A stretch of 51,838 bases of DNA from an uncultured Alphaproteobacteria bacterium. Its GTDB lineage: Bacteria > Pseudomonadota > Alphaproteobacteria > RF32 > CAG-239. Of this stretch, positions 761 through 47,033 are shown in pieces. The notes below the pieces were generated by a model. The model was not told the DNA's origin and did not search any database. It saw only the letters and a list, made by a program, of their open reading frames with translations. Positions within the stretch are counted from its first letter, which is position 1. Each line of letters starts with the position of its first letter. The translations under genes and the position numbers were made by a program. The stretch spans positions 1-51,838 of the forward strand of contig CALXUQ010000004.1 in NCBI GenBank assembly GCA_944391725.1. Direction: 5' to 3'.

Positions 761-788
761 TTGCATTTTAACCAATATGAGGTAGACT
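761..788 (+). promoter_or_regulatory. Putative sigma70-type promoter of cassette copy 1
   Basis: TTGCAT-N16-TAGACT; same hexamer pattern and spacing in copy 2 although the spacer sequence differs. Confidence 0.6.
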
Positions 789-925
789 AAATTTGCACTC
801 GGGAGAGCCGAGTGCGGAGTGTCACAACTCCTTATACAGAAAGAAAGCTCCTTGAATGGGGAGCGGCCGGAATAAGTGTGCCTTGTGCATAACGAAGAAG
901 GTCGACTGTTTCTGTGTACAGTTTG

Positions 926-1194
926 GCCCCTAAATCCCCCTTAAAAATATATTTTAGTTTAGCTAGAAAAAGATAGATGCGAGCAAAATGGTGTAGCGGA
1001 TAGTTCTTCATATCTGCAAAGCATTTTACGAAGCAGATGCTTTTTATAGCTAAATCCGTAGGACAAGCCTCCAATCATCATCCTACTTGCCATTTTTCTT
1101 GGTGTTAGCAATAAGTAGCACCTGCGAAAAATGCCTGCGTATTATAATGATTGGGCGGCTTGCTAAAATATGTCTTTAAGGGAGATTTAGGGGC
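926..1194. mobile_element. 269-nt MITE-like or invertible segment with 32-nt terminal inverted repeats
   Basis: 926-957 versus the reverse complement of 1163-1194 match at 29/32; segment absent from the paralogous leader at ~29870; no convincing ORF. Confidence 0.6.
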
Positions 1195-1201
1195 ATCCTC
1201 C

Positions 1202-1233
1202 CCGCCTTAGGAAAGCTAGGGCGGTTTCTTTTT
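1202..1233 (+). terminator. Leader terminator upstream of the HTH gene (copy 1)
   Basis: CCGCCTTAG-GAAAG-CTAGGGCGG followed by TTTCTTTTT. Confidence 0.7.
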
Positions 1234-1263
1234 GAAGTAGAAACCTAAAGGGAGTTTAGAGCT

Positions 1264-1545
1264 ATGGGACGTTATAGTAAACGAATTAAATCTTGGCAGG
1301 AATGCCGCAAAGAAATTGGCGAAAAAATTAAGGAAATGCGCTTAGAGTTGGATTTATCGCCCGAAACCGCCGCCGAAATACTGCATACCGGCACCAATCA
1401 CTTGCTTTACTTGGAAGATGGATATCTAAAAAATATGCAAATCTCCACCCTCCACGCACTAGCTTATAAATATAATTATAAGTTAAAGATAAGCTTTGAG
1501 AAAAAGAATGAGAAAAAAATAGTCATCCCTCGACTACGAAAGTAG
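1264..1545 (+). CDS. XRE/Cro-C1 family helix-turn-helix protein (copy 1)
   Basis: IGEKIKEMRLELDLSPETAAEIL...LLYLEDG...ISTLHALA pattern; GGGAG RBS; near-identical paralogue at 29939. Confidence 0.8.
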   Translation: MGRYSKRIKSWQECRKEIGEKIKEMRLELDLSPETAAEILHTGTNHLLYLEDGYLKNMQISTLHALAYKYNYKLKISFEKKNEKKIVIPRLRK

Positions 1546-1990
1546 TCGTCCAGGGATCTTCCGATTAGTATTAACAAATTCGAAGACCCCTTGATGGTTA
1601 CTGACGTAACCAAGTGGTGACATATTTATATTGTATTAAAATTATCATAAGCCAGCATAATGATAGCATCGCGGATACAGGGCACATACGCTAAGCAGCT
1701 AACCAGCCGCGGCCCGTCGCACGGGTCATCCCTCGATTGCATTAGCAATATTTAAAGTCATCCCTCGTTTTTCGGAGAAAAACGTCAAACCAAAAGGGTC
1801 ATCCCTCGACTACGATAGTAGTCGTCAAGGGATCTACCGATTAATATTAACAAATTCGAAGGCCCCTTGATGGTTACTGACGTAACCAAGGGGTGACATT
1901 ATATTTATTATCAACCCGCTCTACTGGTAGCATCGCGGCTTCAAGGCACATACGCTAAGCAGCTAACCTGCCGCGCACCCGTCGTACGGG
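1522..1990. repeat. Cluster of GTCATCCC-type palindromic (REP-like) repeats; two ~195-200 nt direct-repeat units (1522-1725, 1798-1990)
   Basis: GTCATCCCTCG at 1522, 1725, 1757 and 1798; units share GGGATCT...TTGATGGTTACTGACGTAACCAAG and TAGCATCGCGG...CCCGTCG(C/T)ACGGG. Confidence 0.85.
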
Positions 1991-28123: not shown

Positions 28124-29617
28124 TTAGTGATGAGCGATAACGTATCCGTTGTTGCCGTCAACAGCGGTGTTGGCATAACCAAAATCAATCGAGTTCATGG
28201 AATGGATTCTAAATAAGGTTTCGCCTTGTTCGACCTTGTCGCCGACCTTTTTGAGCAAGTCGAGTCCGGCTCCCGGATTTTGCGATGCTCCGGCCAAAAC
28301 CCCGATACGATTAATCCGTGTGTTATCAATACTTTCGACATATCCGCTTTCAGAAGCCACAATATCGCGGGTCAAATGCCCCAGTGTTGGTTGCGGAGCT
28401 TTGCCTTGAGCATGAATAATGCGGTTCATGCTTTCAAGAGCGCGACCGGAGTTAAGAATTTCTTTGGCCACAAAATAACCTTGCCCGCCCCGCAGTTTGG
28501 GGTCAAAGTCGATGATTCTTCCGGCCAAGAATAAAGATTTTTCGCGCAAATCTTGCGGAGCATCATCTTTGTTGCGCAACACTTTCATCACATCGCGAGC
28601 TTCGAGCACAGCGCCAATACCATTGCCGATTGGTTCGCTACCATCAGTGATAACCGCATCGACCTCGATTCCCATTTGGTCGCCGACATATTCGATTAGT
28701 TTTCTAAGCCGCATGGCATCTTGAGTAGTTTTAATGCGTGAGTTTGGACCAACCGGAATATCAATCACGAGGTGAGTGATACCCATTGCAATTTTAATGG
28801 CGAGGATTGAAGAAATCAGATGTTGCTGTTGAGTAATGCCGATTTGCCGTTCAACAGAAGATATAAGACGGTTGGCCACGGCAATTTGCAAGCCGCTATG
28901 GCAGACCAAAGCACCACGATTTTCGGCAATCAGCTTTTTGAGTTGGGTTTCATCAAGGTCGACGTTGGCAAGCACACTCATAGTATCGGCCACACCGGCG
29001 CAAGAACTAAGCGAGCGCGAGGCGGTCTTGGGAATGGGCAGACCATAGGCCGATACAATTGCCGTAATAATAATGTCGGTTTTATTACCGGGGATACCGC
29101 CCAAGCAGTGATGATCGACCACAATCCCCTCATTATCCCAACTGATAGTTTGGTTGCCGACTAAAGATTCGGTCATTGCCAAGACCTCGGGCGGGGTCAT
29201 AAACGAACCGGATGCAACTAAGAAAGCGGCAATATCCATATTAGAATAGCGCCGATTGGTGATATCGGTAATAATGGCTTGGTATTCGTTGGGGCTTAAG
29301 ATATTTCCGGCAATTTTGCGTTTGATTGAAGAAACACTGGGCGGAGGTGGTGTAAGTGCCAAGGTAATGTTTGCGCCTTCAGGTAAGTTAATTTGTTCAA
29401 AAGCCTCGGTGTTAAGTGCGAGCTGATCAGGGCTGACTATAGATTCGTCATCAACAATGTTAAGGAAGGCATAGATAGGCTTGGCGCCTCCATGAATTTC
29501 TACTTTGGTCATAAATTTGATATCATCAAGCTTATAGGCCACGCAGTCTTTATGCAGATATGCAACATTTTCATTAAAAGAAGTGATAGGTAAATGTTTT
29601 AATGTCAGCATCGCCAT
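28124..29617 (-). CDS. Thymidine/AMP phosphorylase family protein (long N-terminal type), divergent active site
   Basis: HCLGGIPGNKT, PKTASR, TDGSEPIGNGIG..LEARDV, GLDLLKKVGD.V..GE.LF.IH. Confidence 0.85.
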   Translation of the reverse strand: MAMLTLKHLPITSFNENVAYLHKDCVAYKLDDIKFMTKVEIHGGAKPIYAFLNIVDDESIVSPDQLALNTEAFEQINLPEGANITLALTPPPPSVSSIKRKIAGNILSPNEYQAIITDITNRRYSNMDIAAFLVASGSFMTPPEVLAMTESLVGNQTISWDNEGIVVDHHCLGGIPGNKTDIIITAIVSAYGLPIPKTASRSLSSCAGVADTMSVLANVDLDETQLKKLIAENRGALVCHSGLQIAVANRLISSVERQIGITQQQHLISSILAIKIAMGITHLVIDIPVGPNSRIKTTQDAMRLRKLIEYVGDQMGIEVDAVITDGSEPIGNGIGAVLEARDVMKVLRNKDDAPQDLREKSLFLAGRIIDFDPKLRGGQGYFVAKEILNSGRALESMNRIIHAQGKAPQPTLGHLTRDIVASESGYVESIDNTRINRIGVLAGASQNPGAGLDLLKKVGDKVEQGETLFRIHSMNSIDFGYANTAVDGNNGYVIAHH

Positions 29618-29706
29618 TCCCAAAGATTAATCATAGTGTTAGAAATATCATATTTTTATTTATGATTAGTTAATGCGGAAGAGAGGCAAGGGGTAATAAA
29701 ATCCGC

Positions 29707-29734
29707 TTGCAAATTCTGCGAGATTAGATAGACT
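29707..29734 (+). promoter_or_regulatory. Putative sigma70-type promoter of cassette copy 2
   Basis: TTGCAA-N16-TAGACT, same arrangement as 761-788. Confidence 0.6.
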
Positions 29735-29740
29735 AGACTT

Positions 29741-29909
29741 GCACTCGGGTGAGCCGGGTGCGGAGTGTCACAACTCCTTAACTAGAAAAGAACAACTCCT
29801 TGAATGGGGAGCGATCGGAATAAGTGTGCCTTGCGCATAACGAAGAAGGTCGACTGACATATGCAGTTGCTAACTCCCCGCCTTAGGAATGCTAGGGCGG
29901 TTTCTTTTT
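29741..29909 (+). ncRNA. Structured leader RNA, C4/CI-antisense-like, copy 2 (uninterrupted)
   Basis: Hairpins 29741-29761 and 29762-29777; cloverleaf GGGGAG(29806-11)/CTCCCC(29874-79) with two arms; terminator 29878-29909. Confidence 0.62.
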
Positions 29910-29938
29910 AACTAGAAACCTAAAGGGAGTTTAGAGCT

Positions 29939-30205
29939 ATGGGACATCATCGTAACCGTATTAAATCTTGGCAGGAATGCCGCAAAGAAATTGGCGAAAA
30001 AATTAAGGAAATGCGCTTAGAGTTGGCTTTATCGCCCGAAAATGCCGCCGAAATACTGCATACCGGCACCAATCACTTGCTTTACTTAGAAGATGGATAT
30101 CTAAAAAATATGCAAATCTCCACCCTCCACGCACTAGCTTATAAATATAATTATAAGTTACAGATAAGCTTTGAGAAAAAAATAGTTCAGCCAGCACATA
30201 GATAG
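29939..30205 (+). CDS. XRE/Cro-C1 family helix-turn-helix protein (copy 2)
   Basis: Only three amino-acid differences from 1264-1545 across the core (D/A, T/N, K/Q); termini differ. Confidence 0.8.
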   Translation: MGHHRNRIKSWQECRKEIGEKIKEMRLELALSPENAAEILHTGTNHLLYLEDGYLKNMQISTLHALAYKYNYKLQISFEKKIVQPAHR

Positions 30206-30316
30206 CATCGCGGATATAGGGCACATACGTCAAGCAACTAACCTGCCGCGCCCAGCCGTGCTGGCCTCAGGCGCTGCTTGCGCGCACCCGTCGCACGGGC
30301 GCACCAGCCGTGCTGG
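30203..30316. repeat. 3' structured repeat shared with 1664-1725 and 1928-1990, plus two CCAGCCGTGCTGG palindromes
   Basis: TAGCATCGCGG...GGCACATACG...CTAACCTGCCGCG...CCCGTCGCACGGG; CCAGCCGTGCTGG at 30252 and 30304. Confidence 0.8.
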
Positions 30317-30336
30317 CTCTCAAAGGAGGCCTTATA

Positions 30337-31218
30337 TTATTTTTGTTCAATTGCCAGAGTAGTAATTTTAGGTTTGGTATGAGTAAGAATACTAATCACT
30401 TTCACCAACTCATTTTTGAGTTCCTGACGTGTCACCACAATATCGACCATCCCGTGTTCTTTGAGATATTCGGCGCGTTGGAACCCTTCGGGCAATTTTT
30501 CGCGAATGGTCTGCTCAATCACGCGAGCTCCGGCAAAGCCGATAACACAACCTTTTTCGGCAATATGGACATCGCCAAGCATAGCAAAAGAGGCCGAAAC
30601 ACCACCGGTTGTCGGGTCAGTCAAAATGGAGATGAAAGGCAAGCCTTTTTCCTTAACCATATTGATAGCCGCGGTTGTGCGTGCCATTTGCATTAGAGAT
30701 AAGATACCTTCCTGCATTCTTGCTCCGCCGGATGCTGCCACAGTAATCAGCGGATAATTACCTTTGCAAGCAATTTCAGCTGCTTTAACGATTCCCTCGC
30801 CCACAGCAGTACCCATCGAACCACCCATAAAAGAGAAGTCCATCGCGGCTACTACACAATTAATTCCGCCGATTTCGCCTTGAGCCACTTTGATAGCATC
30901 ATCATTACCGGTCGCTTTGCGATAAGCCCGCAACCGATCGGTATATTTTTTGGAGTCTTTGAAGTTGAGTGGATCTTCCTTAGTTTTAGGAAGTGTAACT
31001 TCATTATATTCTCCGTTATCAAACAGCATTTTGAGGCGTTTATCAATATACAAACGCAAGTGATGTCCGCATTTAGTGCAAACATAGCTGCTTTTTTTGA
31101 GCTCTTTGGAGAACAACATCTGCCCACAATTAGGACACTTAGTCCAGAGGTTGTCGGCAATTTCTTTAGGAGTAGTTTTTTTAACTTTCGGTCGAACGAA
31201 ATCTGTAAGCCAATTCAT
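30337..31218 (-). CDS. accD: Acetyl-CoA carboxylase carboxyltransferase beta subunit
   Basis: LWTKCPNC...CTKCGHH zinc finger, FMGGSMG, SGGARMQEG, PTTGGVSAS, GFAGARVIEQT. Confidence 0.97.
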   Translation of the reverse strand: MNWLTDFVRPKVKKTTPKEIADNLWTKCPNCGQMLFSKELKKSSYVCTKCGHHLRLYIDKRLKMLFDNGEYNEVTLPKTKEDPLNFKDSKKYTDRLRAYRKATGNDDAIKVAQGEIGGINCVVAAMDFSFMGGSMGTAVGEGIVKAAEIACKGNYPLITVAASGGARMQEGILSLMQMARTTAAINMVKEKGLPFISILTDPTTGGVSASFAMLGDVHIAEKGCVIGFAGARVIEQTIREKLPEGFQRAEYLKEHGMVDIVVTRQELKNELVKVISILTHTKPKITTLAIEQK

Positions 31219-45917: not shown

Positions 45918-47033
45918 TTATATATTTTTCTCGGCCGCAAGTTTTTCCAAGAATTTGATTTGGATTTCGGCAATTTGTTTCACACTGTCCATCACCACAT
46001 ATTCACCTGCGGTATGCATACCTTCGCCGGTCCCCGAGTGCATAACCACAATTGAGCCCTTAACCGCAAAAGCTCTTGAATCGGTTGCTCCGCCGATATG
46101 TTCAAATTCGATTTTTTCGCCCATAATATTTTCGGCAAATTGCTTATATTCCAAAATATATTTGTTATCTTCGGGCATAACAACCGGAGTGCTCTCGGAA
46201 ACAATTTTATAGCTTACGCCTGGTATCATGCAACTATCGAGATTTTTGCATAAGTTATCAACGCTGGAATTTTCGGTAAGCCGAAAATCGAGCAAAGCTT
46301 CCGTTTCTCCGCAAATCACGTTTGAAACTTCACCGCCGTGAAGTTTGGCAACATGAACGGTATCAATCCACTTATCGGCGGGAATATTCCCGTTTTTAGA
46401 GTAATAGGGATAGATTTTGCGGATATTGGCAATAACTTGCATCATCATCTCGTTGGCATCGATTCCCTCCCAAGGGGTTGACCCGTGTGCTTCTAGCCCT
46501 TGAGCCATAATTTTGACAAAGACGGGATTCTTGCACTTGGTCACAATTTTGCGAATATCGCCGCCGGTATCATTGTCGAGTACGATTTTAGCCGAGATAT
46601 TAGGATGTGCATTTAAGAAAGCATGGGTACTGGCACTGCCTTTTTCCTCATCGGTTGAAAGAATCACCCCAAACTTGAGGTTAAGTTGGTGCTGGAGTAC
46701 ATATTCCATGGAGTTGAGCGCCACTGCGGCAAAAGATTTCATATCCAAGGAACCGCGACCATAAAGTTTGCCGTTTGCAAGTTTGGGGACAAACATATCA
46801 TCGCTGGCCGGAACCACATCCAGATGCCCCAAGCACAAAACATCAAAATTTTCGGTATTATGGTTGCGAATAAATATCACCGGAGAAGCGGTAGGGAAAC
46901 GTGCAATTTCAACAATAGCACCGCTGTCTTTGAACAAAGATTGGCAATATTCCAAGCATTTATCAATTTGTTCAAGATTCCCGGTTTCAGTCCGAAATTT
47001 CATCAGTTCCTGAGCAACGGCAATAACATCCAT
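45918..47033 (-). CDS. M20 family metallopeptidase/deacylase (ArgE/DapE-like)
   Basis: GHLDVVP, LYGRGSLDMK, TDEEKG, AHGSTPWEG, GGATD, GMHT..E. Confidence 0.9.
   Translation of the reverse strand: MDVIAVAQELMKFRTETGNLEQIDKCLEYCQSLFKDSGAIVEIARFPTASPVIFIRNHNTENFDVLCLGHLDVVPASDDMFVPKLANGKLYGRGSLDMKSFAAVALNSMEYVLQHQLNLKFGVILSTDEEKGSASTHAFLNAHPNISAKIVLDNDTGGDIRKIVTKCKNPVFVKIMAQGLEAHGSTPWEGIDANEMMMQVIANIRKIYPYYSKNGNIPADKWIDTVHVAKLHGGEVSNVICGETEALLDFRLTENSSVDNLCKNLDSCMIPGVSYKIVSESTPVVMPEDNKYILEYKQFAENIMGEKIEFEHIGGATDSRAFAVKGSIVVMHSGTGEGMHTAGEYVVMDSVKQIAEIQIKFLEKLAAEKNI

Follow-up and report, generated by a model that had tools for sequence, protein, structure and literature searches.

A 51,838-nucleotide stretch of DNA from an uncultured Alphaproteobacteria bacterium of the order RF32 (GenBank assembly GCA_944391725.1, contig CALXUQ010000004.1, positions 1 to 51,838 of the forward strand; hereafter the window) contains two cassettes, at 761-1545 (copy 1) and 29707-30205 (copy 2), in which a promoter, a structured RNA and a terminator precede a small XRE-type gene. 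This raises the question of what the RNA is and how it might act on the gene behind it. A preliminary description, made from the sequence alone, had likened the RNA to the phage C4/CI antisense RNAs. We found that both cassettes belong to a large RNA family that had not been catalogued before. Its architecture would be best explained by a leader switch that acts in cis and is locked by a double pseudoknot with a sequence code, a reading in which we place about even confidence.

Reading and aligning the two copies revealed one shared order of elements: promoter, hairpin H1, hairpin H2, a variable A-rich stretch, X, Y, arm 1, arm 2, J, Z, terminator, ribosome-binding site (RBS) and open reading frame (ORF), where J is the short joining segment from arm 2 to Z. 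Every element listed in the preliminary description was recovered at its position in both copies, and its central picture, in which a structured RNA that has a promoter and a terminator of its own precedes a small XRE-type gene, stands.

A dispersed RNA family in the order RF32

A blastn search returned 9-10 close copies in the 1.57-Mb genome. Flanking sequences are unique at every close copy, and the sole gene common to nine of them is the small ORF, consistent with the earlier view of a chromosomally dispersed element. We then searched this genome and its relatives with covariance models, as the preliminary description had suggested. The first model, R1, built from six uninterrupted copies, gave 19 matches in the genome, corresponding to about 17 distinct loci, with one locus divided by a 269-bp insert (described below) and one divided over two contig ends. 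The recurrence of the cassette is thus real, with the copy number being about 17 loci instead of the two first reported.

R1 matched 29 of 61 related genomes, with a maximum of 28 matches per genome. A second model with the corrected structure, R2, matched 108 of 151 genomes, representing 18 of the 20 genera of the order; these 108 genomes hold more than 600 matches, and 18 or more copies are possible in genomes of ~1.5 Mb. In a class-wide sample of 150 genomes, nearly all from other families, R2 matched two. Both matches carry the matched long-range pairings described below (one read through, the other seen aligned), and are therefore true relatives. When public genomes were scanned for the motif, the hits came almost exclusively from gut metagenome bins with the labels uncultured Alphaproteobacteria, 'Azospirillum sp. 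51_20' or 'Proteobacteria bacterium CAG:495', all of which we take to belong to the GTDB order RF32.

Conserved fold and covariation

The RNA is ~165 nt long (range 155-176). The stem counts given here come from 103 RNAs aligned to R2. The hairpins H1 and H2 are followed by a three-way junction closed by GGGGAG (Y) and CUCCCC (Z), from which extend arm 1, containing a conserved purine-rich internal loop (AUAAG/CGAAUAA), and arm 2. Standard base pairs occupy 96.7% of cells, compared with 73.7% in shuffled alignments, where the observed value was reached in 0 of 500 trials, and with 35-51% when the partner strands were slid. All stems covary, with compensatory changes in nearly all pairs of H1, arm 1, Y:Z and the terminator. 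H1 is 97.8% paired, with compensatory changes in seven of its eight pairs, while H2 is 98.6% paired, its middle pair being AU in 50 sequences and UA in 47. The closing stem Y:Z is 99.3% paired with covariation of the two outer pairs, the arm-1 stem 99.2% paired with compensatory changes in five of five pairs, and the arm-2 stem (ACUG/CAGU) 99.3% paired and nearly invariant. The terminator stem is 97.5% paired, with compensatory changes in seven of seven pairs and a U-run behind it.

Upstream, a promoter-like TTGnnn-N16-18-TAnnnT sequence is found at a fixed distance in 86 of the 103 RNAs, with the -10 element ending 5-6 nt ahead of the first base of H1. Letters conserved in at least 90% of sequences are GG-GU-U in H2, GGAG, AUAAG, CGAA-AA, GACUG, CAGUU and A-CUCC, and H1 carries a GNRA-type GAGA tetraloop in 24 of 103 RNAs. 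An alternative fold suggested by RNAalifold, in which the 5' arm of H2 pairs with Z, was rejected, as it leaves the middle pair unpaired in 44 of 85 RNAs, compared with the 98.6% pairing and AU/UA exchange of the H2 hairpin.

The presence of many dispersed copies, with evident recombination between them, is what would be expected of a DNA-level repeat, either a mobile element end or an array of protein operators, with no function as RNA. We find this explanation hardly credible. Every helix shows compensatory changes, the positions of promoter and terminator are fixed, and the copies, with unique flanks in each case, display neither terminal repeats nor a transposase. G:U pairs are also frequent in the stems (at the base of H1, for example, 44 of 102 sequences have GU). 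This speaks for selection at the level of RNA and against a DNA palindrome as its target, and makes H1 an unlikely DNA operator.

Two long-range pairings with variable sequence

In addition to the local helices, two pairings connect distant parts of the RNA. One joins the arm-2 loop (b') to complementary sequence directly behind H2 (b), and the other joins J (a') to its complement in the loop of H2 (a). The longest Watson-Crick run was compared between cognate and non-cognate combinations for 88 distinct RNAs, obtained from 91 well-parsed sequences out of 134 instances; the instances dropped were those in which a simple fold of the first 62 nt gave no clean H2. At least six contiguous Watson-Crick pairs were found between b and b' in 83 of 88 cognate combinations, compared with 176 of 7656 non-cognate ones, with 80 different b' loops represented among the 88 RNAs. 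For a and a', at least five pairs were found in 84 of 88 cognate and 608 of 7656 non-cognate combinations, with 30 different a loops. In an alignment fitted to a:a', this helix is 97.6% paired and all eight pairs show compensatory changes. G:U pairs are common here too, again a sign of selection acting on RNA.

In the preliminary description, one instance of b:b' had been recognized, the complementarity of positions 909-918 to 833-842 in copy 1 (10 nt, one G:U), and other copies had been named as the place to check it; the count of 83 among 88 now extends it to nearly the whole set. Its proposal that two targets on the RNA's own transcript are contacted by a loop and a bulge is likewise borne out, both pairings covarying strongly, with the correction that the bulge, drawn there as unpaired, is one strand of the second long-range pairing, with the H2 loop (84 of 88). 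Judged from these complementarities, a:a' and b:b' are predicted to form a double pseudoknot that ties together the 5' and 3' parts of the RNA. The terminated RNA includes all four of the pairing segments, and the rare copies without an ORF keep self-matching segments, making folding in cis the simpler reading.

The paired segments also diverge far more than the other stems. In 37 pairs of near-identical RNAs, per-site differences were 0.47 for b', 0.39 for b, 0.29 for a and 0.24 for a', compared with 0.10 for H1, 0.08 for arm 1, 0.06 for the terminator stem and 0.32 for the terminator loop. Part of this excess may come from aligning gapped loop columns. It is not predicted by a purely structural role, and a role in specificity or immunity therefore stays alive. 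Copy 2 of the window is the sole RNA among the 88 that is mismatched in both long-range pairings. Its b does not match its own arm-2 loop, and the loop-target complementarity of the preliminary description is thus not seen there. The same b would fit b' of two other copies in this genome (C26:3970-4122 and C68), and copy 2 therefore looks like a recombinant. Four close copies in this genome have identical b.

Such observations bear on a second reading, in which the RNA acts as a C4/CI-like immunity RNA. The 3' cloverleaf, freed by termination with or without processing, would expose a' and b' and, through them, bind in trans to the a and b segments of nascent leaders of the same code, switching off read-through into the XRE gene, and the variable segments would be the specificity determinants separating ~20 paralogous modules. 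This would account for the covarying matches that link the loop and the single-stranded bulge to a pair of neighbouring targets on their own transcript, and for paired segments several-fold more divergent than other stems among near-identical paralogues, as specificity determinants would be; chimeric copies with unmatched 5' and 3' codes could wire one locus to another. We nevertheless regard it as unlikely. Both targets lie upstream in the same terminated RNA, where intramolecular pairing should win, and copies lacking an ORF retain codes that match themselves. The identity of b in the four close copies shows that orthogonality is not strict.

Other points against it come from database and genome searches. 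At gathering scores, the whole window matched nothing in Rfam 15 except five tRNAs. The cmscan comparison with the C4 models proposed in the preliminary description, run on 650-1650 and 29600-30350 with E values up to 10, gave no C4 match and only weak matches to unrelated families. No prophage, icd or ant gene was found among the neighbours of the copies, in agreement with the earlier remark that phage genes are missing nearby; the neighbours are housekeeping genes, unlike the P1/P4 immunity-region setting. A genome-wide search for a..b sites, covering a second target pair (a2/b2) that would overlap the RBS, returned the RNA's own loci and chance-level matches, and pairing of the arm-2 loop with the sequence behind the terminator is only partial. 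Membership in the C4/CI family is therefore not supported: three defining features were looked for, a model match, a phage context and a target pair close to the RBS, and none was found. A fourth, two segments complementary to an upstream target pair on the same transcript (a1/b1), is present, with copy 2 of the window as an exception.

A stronger form of the trans-acting proposal is that the matched hypervariable segments (13-17 nt in all) constitute an RNA address code under diversifying selection, with each of the ~20 modules recognising only its own code through the cloverleaf, released or processed, acting in trans on nascent leaders. We give this proposal, too, rather little credence. 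If true, the family would represent C4/CI-type immunity on the chromosome and free of phage. Chimeric copies (such as copy 2), and an insert travelling with the RNA's 3' half, would then change the control relations among the modules.

Alternative helices next to the terminator

Y has a second partner, X (CUCCUU), located just upstream, and the helices X:Y and Y:Z are mutually exclusive. X:Y is 95.9% paired, with double changes in six of six pairs, on an alignment fitted to X:Y; the figure is 89.2% when the alignment is made without such fitting. When the two outer bases of Y change (AG, GU, GC, GA), Z follows in every common class, and in nine RNAs the last two bases of the terminator 3' strand also change in step with them. 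Z overlaps the base of the terminator stem by 1-2 bases, and Y:Z is accordingly expected, from the sequences involved, to compete with the lowest 1-2 pairs of the terminator stem. Long-range pairing of X with the RBS was considered and rejected, as this helix is not kept where X covaries with Y.

Genes behind the RNA

The RBS follows the terminator within 7-21 nt in most loci, and its distance from the U-run is put at 10-25 nt in most evaluable loci. Using a strict rule, an RBS with an ORF of at least 55 aa within 110 nt was detected for 89 of 113 RNAs, while the other 24 are mostly loci cut by their ends or ORFs missed by the rule. The preliminary description had placed the RBS in the loop of a CTAAA/TTTAG hairpin; this hairpin is present in the close copies of this genome and absent from the wider family. 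The 69 small downstream ORFs share 17% mean identity. Pfam HTH_31 is matched by 33 of the 69 and HTH_3 by 21, and a family profile of the small ORFs matches solved XRE regulators with E = 1.5e-10. Both window ORFs, taken alone, fall below the Pfam threshold (HTH_19, E = 0.043). At the level of the family, the small downstream protein is thus an XRE-type helix-turn-helix protein.

The RNA is not tied to XRE genes alone, since ~12 RNAs precede other genes (L106, L102, L066, L117, L099, L071, L052, L094, L072, L033/L051, L058, L035 and L155). Read from their sequences, without a search, the products appear to include leucine-rich-repeat-like proteins with a signal peptide, Cys-rich secreted proteins, prepilin-like proteins and a lipoprotein. 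Tandem arrays of RNAs also occur, at L095:119-830 (three RNAs), L108:542-967 (two) and L112:3558-3929, in which each unit has its own promoter and terminator with no ORF between the units. Tandem modules comprising RNA plus ORF are found at L075, L096 and L109.

These arrays are relevant to a further reading, in which the RNA is a free-standing structured small RNA or part of an RNA-protein particle. Its conserved core (the arm-1 internal loop, ACUG/CAGU and GGGGAG/CUCCCC) would bind a common protein or ligand, and the ORF would share the promoter through leaky termination. An RNA with its own promoter and strong terminator, arranged in tandem without ORFs, with unpaired core letters conserved in at least 90% of sequences family-wide and an elaborate three-dimensional design combining a double pseudoknot with the H1 GAGA tetraloop (24/103), would fit such a role. 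The RBS, however, follows closely behind the U-run in most evaluable loci, leaving no room for another promoter, and the alternative of X:Y and Y:Z, together with the overlap of Z and terminator, resembles an expression platform. We consider a free-standing RNA a doubtful explanation for the family.

A model for a leader switch

The order of promoter, leader, terminator and RBS, combined with exclusive helices and an overlap with the terminator, fits best with a leader switch acting in cis. In this model, the RNA would be made from its own sigma-70-type promoter and end at the intrinsic terminator ahead of the RBS. Formation of the double pseudoknot would hold the 5' and 3' parts together and favour the closed junction Y:Z. 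Y:Z would take the bottom pairs of the terminator, weakening its base, and would occupy the CUCC of Z, which could otherwise pair with the GGAG of the RBS, so that this state would give more read-through and translation. Capture of Y by X would instead release Z and allow the full terminator to form, with most transcripts ending as a 165-nt RNA. The trigger could be a ligand, another RNA or a protein, for which the XRE product itself is a candidate. Computation supports the promoter, all helices, both pseudoknots, the two alternative helices, the overlap with the terminator and, for the family as a whole, the XRE assignment. We infer where the transcript begins and ends, that the ORF depends on read-through, which way the switch works and what triggers it.

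Several findings weigh against this model. No antiterminator helix pairing with the bulk of the terminator stem was found in the family, and since the overlap of Z with the terminator amounts to 1-2 bp only, any effect on termination could be small. The longest run between Z and the RBS averages 5.74 for cognate and 5.11 for non-cognate combinations, which is barely better, and an anti-RBS role of Z is on these grounds no more than a possibility. In close paralogues, the paired segments show 3-8 times more differences per site than the other stems do, with b' exceeding even the terminator loop. Finally, the few truly ORF-less tandem RNAs (three in L095, and those in L108 and L112) fit a free-standing RNA better than a leader. 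The divergence of the paired segments, the chimeric copies with unmatched 5' and 3' codes and the ORF-less arrays count against a purely structural role of the pairings and together keep two rivals of the leader switch alive, the C4/CI-like RNA acting in trans and the free-standing RNA.

The window copies, their insert and nearby repeats

The features of the two window copies are listed in Table 1. Genes adjoining the cassettes are housekeeping genes, encoding GyrB, Der, DnaK, a nucleoside phosphorylase, AccD, LapA and HU.

Table 1 Positions of RNA cassette elements in the window.
Feature	Position	Strand	Details
Copy 1 promoter	761-788	+	-35 TTGCAT 761-766, 16-nt spacer, -10 TAGACT 783-788
Copy 1 hairpin H1	795-815	+	GCACTCGG / GAGAG / CCGAGTGC
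Copy 1 hairpin H2	816-831	+	GGAGT / loop a GTCACA 821-826 / ACTCC
Copy 1 segment b	833-842	+	TATACAGAAA; partner of arm-2 loop
Copy 1 X and Y	848-863	+	X CTCCTT 848-853, Y GGGGAG 858-863; local hairpin X:Y excludes closing stem Y:Z
Copy 1 arm 1	864-904	+	Stem CGGCC/GGTCG; conserved internal loop AUAAG...CGAAGAA; variable distal hairpin
Copy 1 arm 2	905-922	+	ACTG / loop b' TTTCTGTGTA 909-918 / CAGT; loop pairs with 833-842
269-bp insert in copy 1	926-1194	+	~32-bp inverted ends; in place of J segment (a')
Copy 1 Z, terminator and U-run	1198-1233	+	Z CTCCCC 1198-1203; stem-loop 1202-1224; U-run 1225-1233
Copy 1 RBS and ORF	1250-1545	+	GGGAG 1250-1254; 93-aa XRE-like ORF 1264-1545
Copy 2 promoter	29707-29734	+	TTGCAA 29707-29712, 16-nt spacer, TAGACT 29729-29734
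Copy 2 H1 and H2	29741-29777	+	H1 29741-29761; H2 29762-29777; loop a GTCACA 29767-29772
Copy 2 b, X and Y	29778-29811	+	b TTAACTAGAAAAG 29778-29790; X 29796-29801; Y 29806-29811
Copy 2 arms, J and Z	29812-29879	+	Arm 1 29812-29852; arm 2 29853-29867; loop b' ACATATG 29857-29863
Copy 2 J (a') and Z	29868-29879	+	J/a' TGCTAA 29868-29873; Z CTCCCC 29874-29879
Copy 2 intrinsic terminator and U-run	29878-29909	+	Stem-loop 29878-29900; U-run 29901-29909
Copy 2 RBS and ORF	29925-30205	+	GGGAG 29925-29929; 88-aa XRE-like ORF 29939-30205

What sets copy 1 apart from copy 2 is a 269-bp block, which lies exactly at the position of J, so that the cloverleaf of copy 1 is interrupted, a correction to the preliminary description. 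The block has the features of a miniature inverted-repeat element, with its inverted ends, no coding capacity and several near-identical copies. Further copies, 99-100% identical, are present at C26:3732-4000, at the contig ends C26:23272-23348 with C68:1-56, and at L087:535-803. The insert was found only within copies of this RNA, always at J, in either orientation and in two different genomes. Identical flanks (TTTGG...CATC) surround it in the copies that bear it, and pairs of these copies also have one arm-2 loop in common. The insert and the 3' half of the RNA thus seem to move together, by site-specific insertion or recombination.

Just after the terminator, the U-run is followed family-wide by a complementary A-rich stretch (1225-1249 and 29901-29921 in the window). 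In most relatives this region reads UUUUGUU with AACAAAA, and in this genome GGUUUCU is paired with AGAAACC, the two forms changing together. A second short palindromic repeat (TCATCCCTCG...GAAGACCCCTTGA...) is located behind many small ORFs, including window positions 1505-1650 and ~1760-1900, where it supplies the last codons of the copy 1 ORF; similar pieces of it are present on contigs C6, C14, C24, C40, C1 and C26 of genome G000. Both window copies are also followed by a shared 50-nt stretch (GCCAGCA..ATAGCATCGCGGATA..GGGCACATACG.., at 1652-1700 and 30190-30242), which gives the copy 2 ORF its last codons and stop. Behind this stretch in copy 2, at 30243-30320, is a very GC-rich palindrome, unusual in a genome of 43% G+C.

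Two look-alike sites were dismissed. A further TGCACTCGGG at window position 46042 (minus strand) is a chance match within a coding region, and a target-like site at C41:336 lies within a promoter-like stretch upstream of a ribosomal-protein gene. In that region (G000:C41:250-700, minus strand), AGACTCAAA occurs three times upstream of the gene and is unrelated to the RNA family.

Comparison with known systems

In the literature on noncoding RNA of RF32 and Alphaproteobacteria and on structured RNAs upstream of XRE genes, we found no description of this RNA. One study reports 15 unnamed candidate RNAs that directly precede HTH_XRE genes (Fremin and Bhatt 2021, PMC8040213), and one of these may be the RNA described here. 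Nothing relevant to it was found in passages of a 2026 preprint (10.64898/2026.09.15.751765). Among the closest known RNAs are C4, with the Rfam accession RF01695 (Weinberg et al. 2010, PMC2864571), and the c4-a1b1 motif. The present family, absent from Rfam, is apparently undescribed, and is large and structurally unusual.

Its design combines a conserved core with two long-range pairings whose sequences are different in almost every copy yet matched within it, providing a natural set of orthogonal RNA-RNA pairing codes. The family is open to experiments that would identify it as a new leader switch or as a C4/CI-like circuit independent of phage, and it gives a handle on the control of a large set of tiny XRE regulators and some surface-protein genes in unstudied gut bacteria.

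In the c4 RNA of phages P1 and P7 and the CI RNA of P4, a loop and a bulge of the leader RNA pair with targets on the same transcript. Like the present family, these are folded RNAs of ~80-170 nt in the leader of their own transcript, in which two short segments, a hairpin loop and a single-stranded one, are complementary to two adjacent targets, and these segments differ between relatives with the complementarity kept. In contrast to them, the present family has the upstream target pair only, inside the terminated RNA, its downstream gene is an XRE regulator, and it has ~17 copies per genome, compared with one C4 per prophage.

The kissing-loop antisense systems of plasmids, CopA/CopT of R1 and RNA I/RNA II of ColE1, likewise use short loops as specificity codes, in which loop changes create new incompatibility or immunity groups, and depend on loop-loop or loop-single-strand contacts of 6-8 bp. 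Their partners are transcribed from opposite strands, whereas those of the present family lie on the same strand of the same transcript; the family is also chromosomal and not linked to replication.

Riboswitch and attenuator leaders, as a general class of 5' leaders, employ pseudoknots, an intrinsic terminator and alternative helices. The present family shares with them the order of promoter, structured leader, terminator and RBS, the combination of freely covarying stems with conserved letters in the junction and internal loop, and a strand (Y) with two exclusive partners in a structure that touches the terminator. It differs in lacking a classical antiterminator over the terminator stem, the overlap being 1-2 bp only, in standing almost always ahead of one paralogous set of tiny XRE regulators that it would control, and in having pseudoknot strands that differ between close paralogues more than a hairpin loop does.

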